34,265 nt of DNA, taken from an uncultured Candidatus Saccharibacteria bacterium (GTDB taxonomy: Bacteria > Patescibacteriota > Minisyncoccia > Phycocordibacterales > UBA918). Each line of letters starts with the position of its first letter. The first letter of the stretch is position 1. This document shows, in pieces, positions 70 through 29,244 of this stretch. A program made the translations under genes and the position numbers. The DNA lies in NCBI GenBank assembly GCA_964508585.1, contig CAZDUC010000001.1, positions 6,921-41,185 of the forward strand. The letters are read 5' to 3'. Under the pieces are notes generated by a model. It was given only the letters and a program-made list of their open reading frames with translations, did not search any database and was not told the origin of the DNA.

Positions 70-480
70 ATGAAAATGACAAAAACGACAATCGCATACG
101 GTGTGTTTGTTATTGCGCTACTCGCACTTATGATCTTTGTTCGCAATCAAGCGGATCCTGCACGAGAAGAAACAGCGGTGGCAAATTCACCAATAGATAC
201 GTTTGCGCAGTGTATCAGTGACTCTGGTGCAACATTTTATGGCACGTTTTGGTGTTCTCACTGTAAGGCGCAGAAAGAACTATTCCAAAATTCAAAGAAG
301 CTTCCCTATGTTGAGTGCTCAACACCAGATGGGCAGAACCAAACGAAAGAATGTGCTGATAAGGGAATTGAGGGGTACCCGACATGGATTTTTGCAGATG
401 GGACAAAAGCAAGTGGTGAACAAACATTTGAAAAACTTTCCGAGAAAACGAGTTGTCCGATGCCAAATCAGTCAGAATAG
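70..480 (+). CDS. Membrane-anchored thioredoxin-fold protein (CxxC = CSHC), VKOR-associated Trx-like type
   Basis: N-terminal hydrophobic helix (IAYGVFVIALLALMIFV). Then FYGTFWCSHCKAQKELF ... YVEC ... GIEGYPTW, the pattern of the Trx-like domain that partners with bacterial VKOR. A strong terminator follows immediately. Confidence 0.75.
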   Translation: MKMTKTTIAYGVFVIALLALMIFVRNQADPAREETAVANSPIDTFAQCISDSGATFYGTFWCSHCKAQKELFQNSKKLPYVECSTPDGQNQTKECADKGIEGYPTWIFADGTKASGEQTFEKLSEKTSCPMPNQSE

Positions 481-515
481 AAAAAAGCCCGACAGCTTCG
501 CTGTCGGGCTTTTTT
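481..515. terminator. Bidirectional intrinsic terminator between convergent genes
   Basis: AAAAAAGCCCGACAG-cttcg-CTGTCGGGCTTTTTT: 10-bp GC-rich stem (486-495/501-510) with an A-tract on one side and a T-tract on the other. Confidence 0.85.
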
Positions 516-521
516 CATCTC

Positions 522-9890: not shown

Positions 9891-10457
9891 ATGTCAGAAG
9901 TAGAAAAACAGGAGAGTCAGAAGACCGTTGTTGCGTTTATCACTGGGTTACTCATTGGAGGGTTGCTCGTGTGGGTATTCTCATCAGCACCAGCAGATAA
10001 GAATAAGACGAACGAGGAGAAAACTGATACAGATACAGAACAGGTTGATACCAAGGATGAAAAGAGTGATGAAAAGACTGACGGGAAGACAGATGGGGAG
10101 AAAGAAGCTACTGGAGAGACCGTATCTGATGCAAGCAAGATTATTGGAAAAGGAACAATCACCGTTTCTGATCAAGCTTCAGGTGAGGTGGTTACCCTTG
10201 GAAAGCTTGAATTTCCAACAAAGATTGGATGGGTAGTCGTTCGAGATCTCAAAGATGGAAAGGGTGTTGGCGTACTTGGTGCAGCACTCTACAACACTGA
10301 AATTGGTTTAATTCCTACAACAGTTCCACTCATGCGCGCTACCGTAAAGGATAGCTCATACCAGGTGGTATTCTTCACCAACAATGGTGATAGTGGATTT
10401 TCAATCGTTGATGACAAGCCACTTGATGAAGCAGTTGCAACATTCAAGGCAAACTAA
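9891..10457 (+). CDS. Bitopic hypothetical protein with acidic/lysine low-complexity linker and beta-rich C-terminal domain
   Basis: TM segment VVAFITGLLIGGLLVWVF, then a K/D/E/T-rich tract (EKTDTDTEQVDTKDEKSDEKTDGKTDGEKE), then a globular domain. A terminator follows. Confidence 0.7.
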   Translation: MSEVEKQESQKTVVAFITGLLIGGLLVWVFSSAPADKNKTNEEKTDTDTEQVDTKDEKSDEKTDGKTDGEKEATGETVSDASKIIGKGTITVSDQASGEVVTLGKLEFPTKIGWVVVRDLKDGKGVGVLGAALYNTEIGLIPTTVPLMRATVKDSSYQVVFFTNNGDSGFSIVDDKPLDEAVATFKAN

Positions 10458-10474
10458 CAACAACTTTAGGTTCA

Positions 10475-10514
10475 AACACACAGAAAGCCCCTGATAAGGG
10501 GCTTTCTGTGTGTT
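10475..10514 (+). terminator. Intrinsic terminator-like hairpin
   Basis: AACACACAGAAAGCCCC-tgataa-GGGGCTTTCTGTGTGTT long perfect stem, followed by a short T-containing tail. Confidence 0.7.
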
Positions 10515-10547
10515 TCTCGGAGAGGAGAATGCTATACTATCGAGGAT

Positions 10548-11336
10548 ATGGCTACATACAGTAAAAAGTACAATCCCAATCGAAGTAGTGATTGGAATTA
10601 CGGGGGTGCAAAATGGCGACTTTCGCGTTCAAAAATTGATTTATTTGTAGAGTGTCCGAGATGTTTTTACCTTGACAACAAGCTTGGTACCGCACGACCG
10701 CGTGGGCCTGCATTCACACTTAACGTCGCTGTCGATACGCTCTTTAAAAAAGAGTTTGATGCATACCGGGTAGCCAAAACAGCTCACCCACTCATGGAGG
10801 AATATCACCTCGATGCAGTGCCGTTTGCACATGTCAACATGGATACGTGGCGTGAGAACTTTGAGGGAATTGAGTACCACGATCCTGGTACTGGCTTCAC
10901 CATTTCGGGAGCGATTGATGATATTTGGCTTTTGAGGAGCGGAGAACTCATTGTCGTGGATTACAAAGCAACTGCAAAAGAAGGCACGATTGAAACCCTT
11001 GCTGATTCAGCGTGGGAGGAGCAGTATAGACGGCAAATTGGCGTATACCAGTGGCTTCTTCGCAAAAATGGTTTTTCGGTTTCTGAGACAGGCTACTTTG
11101 TGTATGCAAACGGACTCAGTGATGCCGAGGCTTTTCATGACACACTCAATTTTAAGACGACGCTTGTCCCATGTGTTGGCGATACGACGTGGATTGAGCC
11201 AACCCTCGTGCGTATACAGGAGTGCCTCGCGTCAGATATGTTTCCAAAACCAGGAGATGCGTGCGAATTTTGCCCGTACCGAGAAGCATGTGGGAAAAAA
11301 CTGCAAACCATACACACAAACGCAAAGAAGGAGTGA
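10548..11336 (+). CDS. Cas4/RecB-like PD-(D/E)XK nuclease with 4-Cys (Fe-S) signature
   Basis: N-terminal CPRCFY plus C-terminal CEFCPYREAC (the Cx..C ... CxxCxxxxxC arrangement of Cas4/AddB clusters). Core IDDIW...LIVVDYKAT (D...D/E-x-K) and the QIGVYQWLL (QxxxY) motif. Confidence 0.75.
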   Translation: MATYSKKYNPNRSSDWNYGGAKWRLSRSKIDLFVECPRCFYLDNKLGTARPRGPAFTLNVAVDTLFKKEFDAYRVAKTAHPLMEEYHLDAVPFAHVNMDTWRENFEGIEYHDPGTGFTISGAIDDIWLLRSGELIVVDYKATAKEGTIETLADSAWEEQYRRQIGVYQWLLRKNGFSVSETGYFVYANGLSDAEAFHDTLNFKTTLVPCVGDTTWIEPTLVRIQECLASDMFPKPGDACEFCPYREACGKKLQTIHTNAKKE

Positions 11337-11822: not shown

Positions 11823-12419
11823 ATGGCATACTCGTACGCCATTGAGCAAGCCATTCGAGCTGCTTCAGTGTTACACAAGGATCAGGTAAGAAAGGGAAGT
11901 GTGCCGTATCCCTACGTCACACACCTTTTTGCTGTGGCGACGATTGTGTCGGATTATACGGATGACGAAGATACTATCGTCGCGGCACTTCTCCATGACA
12001 CACTTGAGGACACCGACTATACCGAAAAGGAACTCGAGGATGATTTTGGTGGGCAAGTAAAAGAGATTGTGACGGCGCTCACTGAGCCAAAGATTGAAGA
12101 TCGAGATCGGAAGAGCGTTGATGCACAGAAAAAACAGTACCTGAAGCAAATCAAATCTGCTTCAGAGCGAGCGCTCATTGTGGTTGCCGCGGACAAAATT
12201 CACAATATGCGCTCTATTGTGGAAGAGTACTACGATGATCACTCATCGTTCCTTTCTCACTTCGGTCCTCACATTGAAGATAGACTCCTTAATTACCAAG
12301 AAATCAGTAACACACTGAACCGAGGGCTCAAAAACAATATTCTTGCTGAATTCAATAGCGTCTTTACTGAGTATAAGAATTTTCTCCACGATGTCGAAAA
12401 GAAACGCACCGAATACTAA
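11823..12419 (+). CDS. Stand-alone HD-domain hydrolase of the RelA/SpoT type (putative small alarmone hydrolase)
   Basis: YPYVTHLFAVATIV...DEDTIVAALLHDTLEDTDYTEKELEDDFGGQVKEIVTALTE matches the (p)ppGpp-hydrolase HD signature (H...HD...ED). No synthetase domain is present. Confidence 0.8.
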   Translation: MAYSYAIEQAIRAASVLHKDQVRKGSVPYPYVTHLFAVATIVSDYTDDEDTIVAALLHDTLEDTDYTEKELEDDFGGQVKEIVTALTEPKIEDRDRKSVDAQKKQYLKQIKSASERALIVVAADKIHNMRSIVEEYYDDHSSFLSHFGPHIEDRLLNYQEISNTLNRGLKNNILAEFNSVFTEYKNFLHDVEKKRTEY

Positions 12420-13701
12420 AGCGACGGCCCCCCGTCTTCTCAAAAAAAAGACTGTCGGCACAATTACCGAATATGTACTCACAAGTAACAGCATGCGTGT
12501 GCTTTTTTCACCACGTGCGGGTACTGGAGTGATTACTTCAGATATTGTATACCGTATTGGTTCTCGGCACGAAGCGCATGGCGAGACTGGTATTGCACAC
12601 ATGCTTGAGCATATGCTTTTTAAGCAAACAACACATGACATCGCACAAAAGCATGGCCCTGCTTCAACCGAATTTGAAAAAGCATATGGAGTAAATCTTA
12701 ATGCAAACACATGGCGTGACCGTACGAGTTACTTTTTTTTATATCCAAAAGAACATTTTGGACAGGCAATCAGGATTGAAGCAGAACGCATGCGCGACGT
12801 TGTTATTACTGATGCATCACTTGCTCCCGAAAAAGCAAACGTGCTCAGCGAATATGACATGTATGCCGGTGACGAGTTTTTCACACTTGCTACTGAGATG
12901 TGTGACGTAGCATTTCGTAATCATCCCTACGGCCATGAGACCATAGGGTATCGCGAAGATATCGAGGACTACACTGCAGCAAAAATTTGTTCATACTATG
13001 AACGCTATTACACTCCAAGTAATGCAACACTCATTGTTGTGGGTGATTGTACAGAAGCTGTATTGAAGCGTGAGGTGCTTGCTCATTTTGGTTTACTTCC
13101 GAAAGGCGACGTTCCTGCTGAACACCTATTCCGTGAACCAAAACAAGAAGGGAAGCGTACCATCACCGTGTCACGCCCATCCACAAAAAATATTCTTGCT
13201 CTTGGGGTAAAACATGAAGCCTTTCCTCGTGTGGCATGGTTTGAAACAATGGTAGTCTTTGACATGCTTGCGGGTGGGGAAGGTAGTATTCTCAATAAAC
13301 ACTTTGTCGATTCGGGAGTCATATCGCATATTGACACTTCACTTGAGCAATCAAAAAATACAAACCTCGGTATTATTTTTTGTACACTTTCAAACAAAAT
13401 AACCCATGAAAAACTTGAACAAGAAATCCATAAGGTAATTATGGGCCTTACTTCAAAAGATATTGCTCCGTATCTCAAAAAAACCACTGCAAAACTACTT
13501 ATGAGTGAGGCCCTTTCCCGTGGAAGCAGTCTGTCCTTCACGCGAGAATTAGTGGAGTATGTAAGCGCGGATGCCTGGGAACAGTTTTTTGTATCGGAGG
13601 AAATACTTAAAAGTATTACGCCAAAAGCAGTACATGAACGACTCAAAACGCTCTTTTCTGAAACTCAAATGACTATTGGATACTTTATTGGTCAAAAATA
13701 A
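12391..13701 (+). CDS. M16 family zinc peptidase, catalytically competent subunit
   Basis: Inverted zincin motif HMLEHMLF (HxxEH). Start chosen at Met 12391 (MSKRNAPN), which overlaps the upstream HD gene by 29 nt. The 12343 start would extend the overlap. Confidence 0.85.
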   Translation: MSKRNAPNTKATAPRLLKKKTVGTITEYVLTSNSMRVLFSPRAGTGVITSDIVYRIGSRHEAHGETGIAHMLEHMLFKQTTHDIAQKHGPASTEFEKAYGVNLNANTWRDRTSYFFLYPKEHFGQAIRIEAERMRDVVITDASLAPEKANVLSEYDMYAGDEFFTLATEMCDVAFRNHPYGHETIGYREDIEDYTAAKICSYYERYYTPSNATLIVVGDCTEAVLKREVLAHFGLLPKGDVPAEHLFREPKQEGKRTITVSRPSTKNILALGVKHEAFPRVAWFETMVVFDMLAGGEGSILNKHFVDSGVISHIDTSLEQSKNTNLGIIFCTLSNKITHEKLEQEIHKVIMGLTSKDIAPYLKKTTAKLLMSEALSRGSSLSFTRELVEYVSADAWEQFFVSEEILKSITPKAVHERLKTLFSETQMTIGYFIGQK

Positions 13702-23839: not shown

Positions 23840-23914
23840 TTTCTTATCTTTTACTCTGATCCTGACCTTAGTCAGGAATTTCCGATGCCGTCTAGGTAAG
23901 GAAATAGGAGGACG

Positions 23915-23955
23915 AAACGCTAAAAAGGCTCCTCTACGGAGCCTTTTTAGCGTTT
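23915..23955 (+). terminator. Intrinsic terminator closing the ribosomal-protein operon
   Basis: AAACGCTAAAAAGGCTCC-tctac-GGAGCCTTTTTAGCGTTT, a long near-perfect stem ending in a T-run. Confidence 0.75.
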
Positions 23956-24139
23956 CGAAGCCACAGTACTGTTTTTGACTTTCATTATGTCAAAGATAAG
24001 CGAGACGTGCTTAAGAGTGCTTAGTAAAATCAGAGCGTAGCGAATGATTGTACTTAGCAACTCGGAGGAAGCAATGTCTAACATACTCCATGTATTGGAA
24101 TATTTCCCTTTTATATTCACCGCTCACATGATTACAAAA

Positions 24140-26877: not shown

Positions 26878-27945
26878 ATGAAAGATTATTACGAACTCCT
26901 TGGTATACAAAAAAGTGCCTCGAAAGACGAGGTCAAAAAGGCTTTTCGAAAGCTTGCATCGAAGTACCATCCTGACAAAAAAACAGGCGATGAAGCAAAG
27001 TTCAAAGAGATCAGTGAAGCCTACGCGACGCTCAGTGATGACAAAAAGCGTGCCGAGTACGATACCTACGGCAAATCGTTTGCAGGGGGTGGTACACCAC
27101 ATGGGCAGTGGGGTGGTGGCTTCCAGGGGGGATTTAATGGAGCAAATGTTGAATTTGACCTCAATGATATTTTCGAAAATTTCGGCGACATTTTTGGAGG
27201 GGGCGGACGTGGCGGACAGCGAGCGTCTCGAGGAAATGATATTTCAGTCGATATTGAGCTCACCTTCAAAGAGTCTATTTTTGGCACGAAGCGTACACTC
27301 AAGCTTGCAAAGAACAATACATGCACTACGTGTCACGGTACTGGAGGAAAACCAGGTACGGACATGACTTCGTGTAGTACCTGTAACGGTAATGGAAGAG
27401 TCCGTGAGACACGGCAGAGTATTCTCGGACAGTTTGCAACTGTGCGTGAATGTTCTGCATGCAATGGAACTGGTAAGATTCCAAAGGAGAAATGTGGTGA
27501 TTGTCATGGTGTGGGGATACGACGCTCGGAAGATACTATCGATATCAATGTACCAGCAGGAATAGAGCCGGGTGAAATGATTCGAATGACAGGGCGTGGA
27601 GAGGGAATTAAAGGTGGCACTCCTGGGGATCTGTACATCAAGGTGCACGTCCAACGCCACCAGACCATTCATCGAAATGACAGTACCCTCGAGAGCACTA
27701 TCAAGGTGAAGCTCACAGACGCAATTCTCGGAGCAACATATGAAGTTGAGACGCTCGATGGTATGGTGCAAATTAAAATTCCAGAGGGAGTGAAGCACGG
27801 TGAGATTCTCCGCATCAAAGGAAAGGGTGTGCCAGTCGGTTCATCTCGCGGTGACTTCCATGTAAAAATAGTTATCGATATTCCAGAAAAACTATCCCGC
27901 TCTGCCCGTAAGCTCGTCGAGGAATTAAGAAAAGAAGGCATTTAG
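26878..27945 (+). CDS. dnaJ: Molecular chaperone DnaJ
   Basis: J-domain with HPDK, G/F-rich region, and four CxxCxGxG zinc-finger repeats. Confidence 0.97.
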
Positions 27946-27962
27946 CTAAACGAACCGGAACG

Positions 27963-28005
27963 ATAATGTAAATCGTAGGGGTCTGACCCCTACGATTTAC
28001 ATTAT
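27963..28005. repeat. REP-like perfect palindrome (left copy); also a bidirectional terminator
   Basis: ATAATGTAAATCGTAGGGGTc-tg-aCCCCTACGATTTACATTAT: 19-20 bp perfect stem. Sits 17 nt after the dnaJ stop and 4 nt beyond the stop of the minus-strand transposase gene. Confidence 0.85.
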
Positions 28006-28009
28006 GAGA

Positions 28010-28618
28010 TTACTCTATAATTGATTTCTCTCTCTGTCTTCTTTGATATATATCTTTTGCAAGTTCCTGTGATTTTTCAACATTATATGATGTCTTCAAA
28101 TCAATAAGTTTACTCTGATGGTGACCCTGAAAATATGAGGAGCTTGAATAACAGATATCATCAGGACGTTGTGTCATATGAACGATGTGATTTTCATTAA
28201 CGTAGGCAAATACATATTTATACTGCTCATCGGTAGTTACATGAACACGTTTAAAACGCCCCTGAAATAATGCCCCCGATCTATCATACTTTTCATTAAA
28301 GTATGAAGTAAATCCACCTGAAACTCTTTTAACGAATTCGCTGATACCCCCCTCAGACAGTTGTTCAATGAGTAAATGGTAATGATTAGGAAGCAACGAA
28401 AATGCGTGGACACGAACAAGTCTATCCTTTGGATCATCAATGACTAAAGTTAAAGCGTGTGAATAATTTAGTATTGGCTCTACTGTATTAAACAAATACA
28501 TCGATTGATAAAATCGAATGTAATCTGTTTTGTCATGGAATATTTCACGCTTATCGACACCACGATTGAACACGTGATACACTTCACCAGTAATGAGGGG
28601 AATAATTTTTCTTGGCAT
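28010..28618 (-). CDS. HUH/Y1 tyrosine transposase, IS200-like / REP-associated (RAYT-like)
   Basis: YHVFNRGVDKREIF, HUH motif LLPNHYHLLI, GALFQGRFK, and Tyr-helix YVFAYVNENH. Start set at Met 28618 (MPRKIIPL), because the longer track ORF runs through the upstream palindrome. Confidence 0.85.
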   Translation of the reverse strand: MPRKIIPLITGEVYHVFNRGVDKREIFHDKTDYIRFYQSMYLFNTVEPILNYSHALTLVIDDPKDRLVRVHAFSLLPNHYHLLIEQLSEGGISEFVKRVSGGFTSYFNEKYDRSGALFQGRFKRVHVTTDEQYKYVFAYVNENHIVHMTQRPDDICYSSSSYFQGHHQSKLIDLKTSYNVEKSQELAKDIYQRRQREKSIIE

Positions 28619-28646
28619 ATATACATTATATACTGATTCTTGCAAA

Positions 28647-28671
28647 ATCGTAGGGGTCAGACCCCTAAGAT
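28647..28671. repeat. REP-like palindrome (right copy)
   Basis: ATCGTAGGGGTCAGACCCCTAAGAT matches 27972-27996 at 23/25 positions in direct alignment and 24/25 in inverted alignment. Lies 28 nt upstream of the transposase start. Confidence 0.8.
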
Positions 28672-28764
28672 TCAGTAGGTATATAGTAAATGAGATGATG
28701 GCGGTATACACAGATATTGCGGGTACATAACAATATATACTCATAAAAAGCATATAATAGACAA

Positions 28765-29244
28765 ATGGACACTGACAGTATTATCTCACTCCTCAAAGAG
28801 TCTGTTTTACTACTTTCTGTTTTTGGTGTACTACTCCTCTACGCTATGGCAAAGGGGCGCTATGCACTCATTAACGTGATTCTTGCACTCTATCTGGCAT
28901 TGCTCATTTCTCTCAAATTTCCGTACTACGACCAGATTGCAGAGGGAAGTGGTGAGGGTACCGCGGTTGCAAAAATTTTAATCTTTCTCTCATTTGTGGT
29001 CGCGGGTACGTTCCTTTTCAGACGGCATATTCCAGGCGATGACTACGAACCTGCTTTTTACAGGTTTTGGAAAAAGCTGCTCCTCGCGTGCATGGGGACA
29101 GTGCTCATTATGATATTTAGTTTTCATGCGCTTCCGGTGACTGAGATTATCACTCCAGGAACGCCGATTCAGGCACTTTTTGCATCTGCAGATAATTTCT
29201 TCTGGTGGCTCGTTCTTCCACTTTTTGCGCTCTTTTTGGTGTAG
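28765..29244 (+). CDS. Small polytopic membrane protein (4-5 TM), function unknown
   Basis: 159-aa ORF dominated by hydrophobic segments. TATAAT at 28753-28758 lies 6 nt before the ATG. Confidence 0.65.
   Translation: MDTDSIISLLKESVLLLSVFGVLLLYAMAKGRYALINVILALYLALLISLKFPYYDQIAEGSGEGTAVAKILIFLSFVVAGTFLFRRHIPGDDYEPAFYRFWKKLLLACMGTVLIMIFSFHALPVTEIITPGTPIQALFASADNFFWWLVLPLFALFLV

Follow-up and report, generated by a model that had tools for sequence, protein, structure and literature searches.

The closest described relatives of the locus reported here are two kinds of enzyme-repeat unit: the REP/RAYT units, in which repetitive extragenic palindromes (REPs) accompany a REP-associated tyrosine transposase (RAYT), and the TIRtrons, in which a TIRYT gene lies between terminal inverted repeats (TIRs). 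The TIRs contain the motif GGGGWSAS; self-complementary TIRs are among them and make up families of moderate abundance (Di Nocera, De Gregorio and Rocco 2013, PMC3733652). TIRYTs have been equated with TnpA-Y1 subclass 2.1, characterized by the motifs NH[YF]H, FQ, and SS, and REP-like structures were reported to be absent beside subclass 2.1 genes (Quentin et al. 2018, PMC6006769). The 16-mers flanking RAYT Group 1 genes occur about 12 times per replicon, and RAYTs were argued to behave like housekeeping genes (Bertels et al. 2017, PMC5581495). In this study, a Y1 HUH gene flanked by two palindromes was analyzed in a 34,265-nt stretch of contig CAZDUC010000001.1 (the window) from a member of the Candidate Phyla Radiation (CPR; Paceibacteria). 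The locus is probably a chromosomally fixed unit of the REPtron/TIRtron type, that is, a domesticated Y1 HUH endonuclease/ligase for single-stranded DNA from the RAYT superfamily, closest to TIRYT/subclass 2.1/Group 1, which is bracketed by its cognate self-complementary repeat. The architecture has already been published, and the window locus extends the known REP/TIR enzyme-repeat pairing to a new phylum. Among the papers listed by the literature searches, none linked RAYT terms to CPR taxa, except for a passing KEGG label on an archaeal gene, which is consistent with the remark in the initial annotation that REP/RAYT units had not been characterized in CPR genomes. The unit consists of the following features:

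28010..28618, minus strand: Y1 HUH (RAYT/TIRYT-like) gene, 202 amino acids (aa), assigned from Pfam Y1_Tnp, invariant residues, an AlphaFold2 (AF2) model, and Foldseek.
27963..28005, no strand: downstream flanking palindrome, a perfect 21+1+21 inverted repeat with the family-wide 25-nt core at 27972-27996.
28645..28672, no strand: upstream flanking palindrome, the second copy of a 28-nt unit, with 13-nt arms and 1 mismatch.

Comparison with Described Systems

As in TIRtrons, a RAYT-like Y1 gene is located between GGGGWSAS inverted repeats at short, fixed distances, the motif being GGGGTCAG in the window. The copy number is low in both, and the members from Rhodospirillum rubrum and soil metagenomes share the GGGGTC-N-GACCCC core of the window. 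The protein motifs NHYH, LFQG, and YSSSSY fit the patterns NH[VYF]H, W[EQ] or FQ, and SS (Table 1 of PMC6006769) and, as far as motifs can tell, point to subclass 2.1 of Quentin et al. rather than to the E. coli-type subclass. In contrast to TIRYTs, the host belongs to CPR/Paceibacteria, the protein is shorter (202 aa versus a median of 238) and has no distal helix-turn-helix (HTH)-like tail, and its Y motif is YVNENH instead of YIELNP or Y[IV]HLNP. Moreover, both flanks in the window clade are full hairpins with stems of up to 21-23 bp, and the unit lies beside the same open reading frame (ORF) near the dnaK operon across the whole clade.

With the canonical REP/RAYT units of Enterobacteria and Pseudomonas, whose RAYTs correspond to Quentin subclasses 2.2/2.5 and Bertels Groups 2/3, the locus shares a low-copy Y1 HUH gene, cognate palindromes inverted at its flanks, intergenic dispersal of the same palindrome (here in the genome DALYES01 and on the metagenome contig L047), inheritance that looks vertical at short range, and the E. 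coli TnpA-REP structure 4ER8 as the best structural match. It differs from them in a protein that remains under the cutoff of the NCBIfam model NF047646 (34.9 versus 80 bits), in the lack of a conserved unpaired 5' GT[AG]G foot in the window clade (PMC3733652, PMC6006769), and in repeats with the symmetry of a perfect palindrome, in contrast to asymmetric REPs or REPIN doublets. In most genomes, the copies are also fewer by a factor of tens.

Flanking Palindromes and Their Variation

The arms of the downstream palindrome (27963-27983 and 27985-28005) are 21 nt each, 100% complementary, and separated by 1 nt. The palindrome lies 17 nt past the dnaJ stop codon and 4 nt beyond the Y1 stop codon, and the outer 9 bp of each arm are locus- and lineage-specific. 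Folded as single-stranded DNA (ssDNA), it reaches -20.4 kcal/mol (z = -9.5), which none of 200 shuffles matched. The 25-mer ATCGTAGGGGTCTGACCCCTACGAT (27972-27996) is found again at 28647-28671 with 2 mismatches in direct and 1 mismatch in inverted alignment, for which the chance expectation is 0.00 (100 shuffles). The 28-nt unit common to 27970-27997 and 28645-28672 shows 93% direct and 96% inverted identity. The upstream copy is an imperfect hairpin (-8.7 kcal/mol, z = -3.9, ssDNA fold) at a distance of 28 nt from the Y1 ATG. A recount confirmed the layout given in the initial annotation, including the coordinates, the gaps of 4 and 28 nt, the bracketing of the 202-aa ORF, and the matches of 23/25 (direct) and 24/25 (inverted). 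The 13-nt core GGGGTCNGACCCC was not found elsewhere in the 34-kb window with 1 mismatch allowed. Orthologous copies, both downstream and upstream, are present in L005, L007, and L008, and the upstream version of L007 has a compensatory double change.

Across the eight genomes available for comparison, the Y1 gene is bracketed by two genome-specific palindrome copies within ~45 nt of the gene ends in every case (8/8). The palindromes are as follows:

Window, L005, and L007: ATCGTAGGGGTCWGACCCCTACGAT
L130: AAGTAAGGGGTCWGACCCCTTACTT
L132: AACTTAGGGGTGACACCCCTAAGTT
L136: ACTTAGGGGTTWAACCCCTAAGT

AGGGGT...ACCCCT is invariant among 13 palindrome copies. The covariation analysis over these copies revealed that 9 of 15 pairs were changed on both sides and 91.8% of the cells were paired, which was reached by 0 of 500 shuffles. 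Judging from the aligned copies, the hairpin pairing is maintained by compensatory change on both arms around the AGGGGT/ACCCCT core. A GGGGWSAS-type motif occurs as GGGGTCAG in the window, L005, and L007 and as GGGGTGAC in L132, while L136 (GGGGTTAA) deviates from it. The link to enterobacterial REPs that the initial annotation had drawn from the tetranucleotide GTAG did not hold. In the window, GTAG is base-paired inside the stem, and the same position is occupied by GTAA in L130 and L134, TTAG in L132 and L136, and ATAG in the upstream copy of L007. Since it lies inside the stem and is replaced in orthologues, GTAG is probably coincidental; the conserved element is AGGGGT...ACCCCT instead.

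Locus-specific sequence carries the stems well past the shared 25-mer, so that the perfect arms reach 18-27 bp. Such extended stems were observed in the window (27963-28005), L002 (178-232), L003 (4106-4146), L005 (844-880), L006 (1009-1045), and L007 (9936-9982 and 10613-10655). In the Y1-upstream copy of L007, 11 nt of one flank are the reverse complement of the other flank, with the length unchanged; the ancestral form of this copy is seen at both flanks in the window and at one flank in L005. This looks like palindrome lengthening by intrastrand template switching (quasipalindrome correction). An alternative origin of the long stems, in which the core would have inserted into hairpins already present, was set aside, as the orthologue alignment favors same-length replacement of flanks (one clear case).

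The Y1 HUH Protein

The Y1 protein contains the HUH motif H79-Y-H81 within LPNHYHLL, FQ within LFQGRFK, and the predicted catalytic Y139 within YVNENH. Its tail comprises the SSSS motif (YSSSSY) followed by a single C-terminal helix at 180-201, and no HTH family was detected in the protein by Pfam. An alternative longer ORF of 247 aa, which starts at 28753, would run through the upstream palindrome; this reading is not supported because the homologues begin at MPRK. The identification as a Y1 transposase made in the initial annotation was verified by Pfam Y1_Tnp (PF01797; 26.9 bits versus a cutoff of 23) and by the invariance of H79, H81, and Y139 in an alignment of 37 relatives with 42-85% identity. 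In the same alignment, N78, H79, and H81 (LPNH[YF]HL), Q119 (LFQG), Y139, N141, and N143 (Y[VI]N-N), and S159 (SS tail) were invariant.

All 37 family members matched NF047646 (REP_Tyr_transpos, the RAYT equivalog), every one below its cutoff. The IS200 model NF033573 (transpos_IS200) was matched by 2 of the 37 relatives (E = 0.03), and a search of this model with the window protein gave no match. Of the RAYT class proposed in the initial annotation, the assignment to the RAYT superfamily was retained, whereas the score below the equivalog cutoff and the subclass 2.1 motifs do not correspond to the E. coli type. The AF2 model had a pLDDT of 88.9, and its top Foldseek match was the E. coli RAYT-REP complex 4ER8 (E = 8.6e-8), followed by the TnpA proteins of ISDra2 and IS608 (E ~1e-4); the Foldseek probability was 1.00 for all three. 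Sequence-only searches of the PDB, with the single protein and with a family profile, gave marginal ISDra2 matches only (E ~0.35-1.3).

The protein family is large and environmental. The databases contain 370 relatives, nearly all of 200-220 aa, and the profile search retrieved 904 clusters at 50% identity with E <= 1e-30. The named relatives belong to Patescibacteria/Paceibacteria, and the automatic annotation of some of them reads "REP element-mobilizing transposase RayT". The more distant members of the same hidden Markov model (HMM) family have YIHLNP or YIHTNP.

Synteny, Selection, and Inheritance

The gene order (grpE-dnaK-)dnaJ, one or two extra genes in two lineages, Y1, and a ~160-aa ORF was found in eight Paceibacteria genomes, represented by the window, L005, L007, L008, L130/131, L132/133, L134/135, and L136. 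The identity of Y1 to the window protein is 99% in L008, ~87% in L005, 83-84% in L007, 57% in L130/131, 55% in both L132/133 and L134/135, and about 47-50% in L136. Extra genes separate dnaJ from Y1 in L132 and L134, and the palindromes remain with Y1. In the stretches examined for each genome, no second Y1 gene was detected. The dN/dS values of Y1 ranged from 0.08 to 0.22, about 0.1, and by this measure, the gene is under purifying selection. Y1 and DnaJ show parallel divergence in the closest trio, at 83-85% for each; strict co-divergence of the two proteins was tested and was not demonstrated beyond this trio. The whole cassette (palindrome-Y1-palindrome) of L136, at 9957-10718, is inverted relative to dnaJ and the 160-aa ORF, and its Y1 is the most divergent (48-50%) despite a DnaJ close to the window clade (74-78%).

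Synonymous differences between the window and L007 amounted to a proportion of 0.49 for Y1 versus 0.79, a saturated value, for the adjacent dnaJ (26878-27945). Possible causes are a more recent exchange of the cassette and a constraint on composition. The neighboring ORF at 28765-29244 (plus strand) encodes a predicted membrane protein of 159 aa with no Pfam match and lies beside the Y1 cassette in every genome examined. It is usually divergent from Y1 and stays beside it even where other genes separate dnaJ.

Dispersed Copies in Relatives

Among the species-representative genomes, the exact 25-mer was found only in the metagenome-assembled genome DALYES01 (Candidatus Paceibacterota), a sister genome, on five contigs. 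With up to 2 mismatches, DALYES01 has nine sites, two of which bracket the syntenic Y1 gene (L005). The search of related genomes for the 25-mer, proposed in the initial annotation, thus yielded seven solo sites, six of them clearly intergenic; these six lie between ordinary genes, e.g., murA-like, YkuD, IspA, MgtC, and AhpC, and the seventh overlaps only an unannotated ORF of 100 aa. No second Y1 gene was present in the fetched DALYES01 stretches. Within 14.3 kb of the metagenome contig L047, whose Y1 is 49% identical to that of the window, AGGGGTCSGACCCCT occurs 19 times, and 16 of these copies are intergenic. Solo copies together with a low-copy Y1 gene are the pattern of a repeat family with its enzyme and not of an insertion sequence.

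Further observations were made on L047. One copy, ACTGAGGGGTCCGACCCCTCAGT (12149-12171), is located in frame inside the Y1 gene (11973-12707), where it codes for LRGPTPQS in a variable loop before the HUH strand. Inserts of 20-40 aa occur at the same loop in several distant family members, with GRRPPSATPL present three times in P0253. In-frame repeat insertions were described only for subclass 2.4 (Quentin et al., PMC6006769). The region 6375-10294 of L047 is a tandem duplication of a 1.9-kb unit, comprising a ~250-aa ORF and a release-factor (RF) gene (PCRF/RF-1), with repeat copies at every joint, and the contig has another RF paralogue, the third, at 1594-2613. This suggests that the segmental duplication was mediated by the repeats.

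These data also bear on the reading of the locus as an ordinary autonomous insertion sequence (IS) of the IS200/IS605 group, in which the whole 0.7-kb unit would transpose and the palindromes would be the left and right subterminal hairpins. The locus does share with the IS608 and ISDra2 TnpA elements the Y1 HUH fold (the protein has the Y1_Tnp domain) and DNA hairpins near the gene ends, here within ~40 nt of both, and the inverted cassette of L136, with a divergence unlike that of its neighbors, suggests an exchangeable cassette. However, IS200/IS605 elements are multi-copy and mobile, have dissimilar ends, and often contain tnpB, none of which was seen at the window locus: the same palindrome is present at both ends, there is no tnpB, no second Y1 gene was found in the stretches examined, and the neighbors are the same in eight genomes down to ~47-50% identity. 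The motifs NHYH and Y---N (YVNEN) stand in place of DH[VI]H and Y---Q of TnpA-IS200 (PMC6006769), and the IS200 HMM was matched by just 2 of 37 relatives (E = 0.03). Solo palindromes are dispersed without the gene, and dN/dS is ~0.1 across species. An ordinary IS is therefore considered very unlikely. The preference of the initial annotation for a REP/RAYT-like unit over a plain IS200 was upheld by the conserved position, the same palindrome at both ends, the solo copies, the matches of 37/37 members to the RAYT HMM, and 4ER8 as the top structural match.

Setting of the Palindromes and Possible Regulatory Roles

The downstream copy separates the dnaJ and Y1 genes, which converge on it. Neither strand has a T-tract after the hairpin, and scanning for terminators revealed no terminator-like sites. 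The initial annotation had suggested that this copy serves as a terminator for both dnaJ and the transposase gene; its interpretation as an intrinsic terminator was rejected as unsupported. Other long perfect hairpins in the window (480-516, 10474-10515, and 23913-23957) have stems of 17-20 bp and A/T-rich feet, e.g., GAAAAAAGCCCGACAGC...GCTGTCGGGCTTTTTTC; they resemble typical bidirectional intrinsic terminators and have no sequence relationship to the Y1 palindrome.

The 146 nt that separate the Y1 gene from the divergently transcribed 159-aa membrane ORF contain the upstream copy. A promoter element may be located next to it:

28625..28630, minus strand: possible -10 box TATAAT, 6 nt before the Y1 ATG, proposed from reading the sequence only.

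The TATAAT block is kept in L005, L007, and L008. The promoter scan, in which promoter-like sites were no more frequent than expected by chance, did not report it. For this TATAAT, the -35 box would fall on the 3' arm of the upstream palindrome. Given this position in a divergent promoter region, it is possible that the Y1 protein regulates its own promoter via the upstream copy.

The palindromes might be mainly host regulatory elements (transcript-end stabilizers, terminators, or operators), with Y1 as a domesticated sequence-specific binder or nickase and no spreading of the repeat. The positions between convergent dnaJ and Y1 and over the likely -35 site of the divergent promoter region would agree with such a role, as would the very low copy number (the flanking pair only in 20-34 kb of most genomes), the retention of the unit under purifying selection in streamlined genomes, and the view of RAYTs as genes with housekeeping behavior (Bertels et al. 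2017, PMC5581495). On the other hand, neither a T-tract nor a terminator-like site accompanies the hairpin, and the HUH and Tyr catalytic residues are invariant, which is not required of a pure binder. The 25-mer is present at seven unrelated DALYES01 loci, and the 19 copies of L047 include one in frame in Y1 and others at duplication joints, so that a spreading process is needed. A purely regulatory role is thus regarded as unlikely, though less so than an ordinary IS.

The Same Core Beside Y1 Genes in Other Phyla

A metagenome scan was performed with the 17-mer TAGGGGTCNGACCCCTA, a permissive query. The core was found in organisms with a GC content of 0.33 to 0.72 and mostly belonged to a longer palindrome; 40 of 128 core sites extended by at least 4 further pairs, compared with 0.5 expected. 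The full ATCG...CGAT 25-mer was absent among the metagenome matches listed, and the lineage of the window itself was not recovered. A scan of viral contigs gave one match, which was unrelated. A Y1 homologue was present in five metagenome loci (L108, L048, L065, L072, and L047; 652 kb in all). In L108 (high-GC), palindrome arrays are located on both sides of the Y1 gene, whereas L048 (low-GC), L065, and L072 (high-GC) have one copy each within ~400 nt of it; the Y1 gene is incomplete beside the single copy in L065 and L072. In L047, the scan match is 11 kb away from Y1, which is itself flanked by copies of a related palindrome. With NHVH, WE, Y[IV]EMNP, and YRWSSY, the Y1 proteins of the high-GC loci are classical members of subclass 2.1.

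Among the plasmid-borne relatives, the Y1 gene of R. rubrum ATCC 11170 is bracketed by AAAAGGGGTCAGACCCCTT and ACGGGGTCTGACCCCTTTT. The Iodobacter relative has non-palindromic inverted repeats with GGGGTCAGAG, that of Pseudoalteromonas has inverted repeats with the related GGGTCAGAG, and that of Skermanella has copies of GGGGTCAGAG upstream only. The association of the core with Y1 genes holds across phyla, and classical members from Proteobacteria have this palindromic core at their flanks.

In soil and rhizosphere contigs of high GC content (0.65-0.70), the core is also found as close pairs or short arrays of CTTAGGGGTCWGACCCCTAAG units with a spacing of 26 or 52 nt. These were observed in L016, L025, L030, L034, L039, L055, L073, L102, L108, and others, and in L108, the C-terminus of the subclass-2.1 Y1 gene reads into the first repeat.

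The occurrence in other phyla also bears on a reading in which the palindromes are unrelated to Y1 and represent either a CIRCE-like heat-shock operator for the dnaK genes or an inverted repeat that arose by chance. The site does adjoin the grpE-dnaK-dnaJ operon, and the outer TTAG...CTAA of some orthologues bears a loose resemblance to CIRCE. However, the palindromes are located downstream of the operon rather than upstream, they stay with Y1 where extra genes part it from dnaJ (L132 and L134), and distant Y1 homologues, on plasmids and in other unrelated settings, have the core at their flanks as well; the chance expectation is 0.00. The probability of an unrelated palindrome is consequently negligible, and a CIRCE/HrcA operator was ruled out by position and by the co-occurrence with Y1 genes across phyla.

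Proposed Mechanism and Implications

Several points weigh against the assignment of the locus to a fixed REPtron/TIRtron-type unit. DNA binding, the cleavage site, and the mobility of the Y1 protein are all inferred. Symmetric changes of the palindrome can also stem from a dimeric protein that binds double-stranded DNA or from intrastrand template switching, in both cases without a role for a single-strand hairpin. The flanking pair is the only one in the 34 kb of the window and in the 20-kb loci of four other relatives, so the copy number is usually low, and dispersal is documented in DALYES01 and L047 only. The protein scores 34.9 bits with the RAYT equivalog NF047646, under the cutoff of 80; the class-2 motif Y---NP is altered to YVNENH, in which Pro is replaced, and the distal HTH-like tail typical of subclass 2.1 is lacking. 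The correlation of the deeper Y1 and DnaJ divergences is weak (Spearman rho 0.31, p = 0.18), and the flipped, divergent cassette of L136 beside a close DnaJ suggests inversion and/or replacement in place.

The REPtron/TIRtron-type unit nevertheless remains the likely explanation. By analogy with E. coli TnpA-REP and IS608 (PMC6006769; PDB 4ER8), the Y1 protein would bind the GGGGTC-N-GACCCC hairpin extruded on ssDNA, e.g., on the lagging-strand template. It would cleave beside the hairpin through Tyr139, with the metal held by His79/His81, and the strand would then be rejoined. Occasionally, the short palindrome, and not the Y1 gene, would be copied or moved to new intergenic sites. The two copies beside the Y1 gene would be the resident pair, the upstream one of which may allow autoregulation of the promoter.

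A broader proposal is put forward tentatively and is, in our estimate, rather doubtful. The GGGGTC-N-GACCCC hairpin with its invariant AGGGGT core might be the element that is recognized throughout the largest RAYT branch (Group 1/subclass 2.1/TIRYT), from Proteobacteria and high-GC soil bacteria to CPR. The Paceibacteria cassette would then be a long-term resident by the dnaK operon, kept by selection in ~1-Mb genomes for a host function, such as hairpin-dependent control of neighboring transcripts or replication, and it would rarely seed hairpins that lengthen by intrastrand template switching.

The locus extends the enzyme-repeat partnership of the REP/RAYT type to the Candidate Phyla Radiation, a group poor in repeats and mobile DNA in which the retention of any gene calls for a reason. 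It ties a very large environmental protein family to one simple, conserved hairpin in the DNA, and it corrects the view, taken from the literature, that hairpin-type repeats do not flank subclass 2.1 genes. The 25-nt perfect palindrome and the 202-aa protein also provide a compact test substrate for a RAYT branch that has never been studied biochemically.

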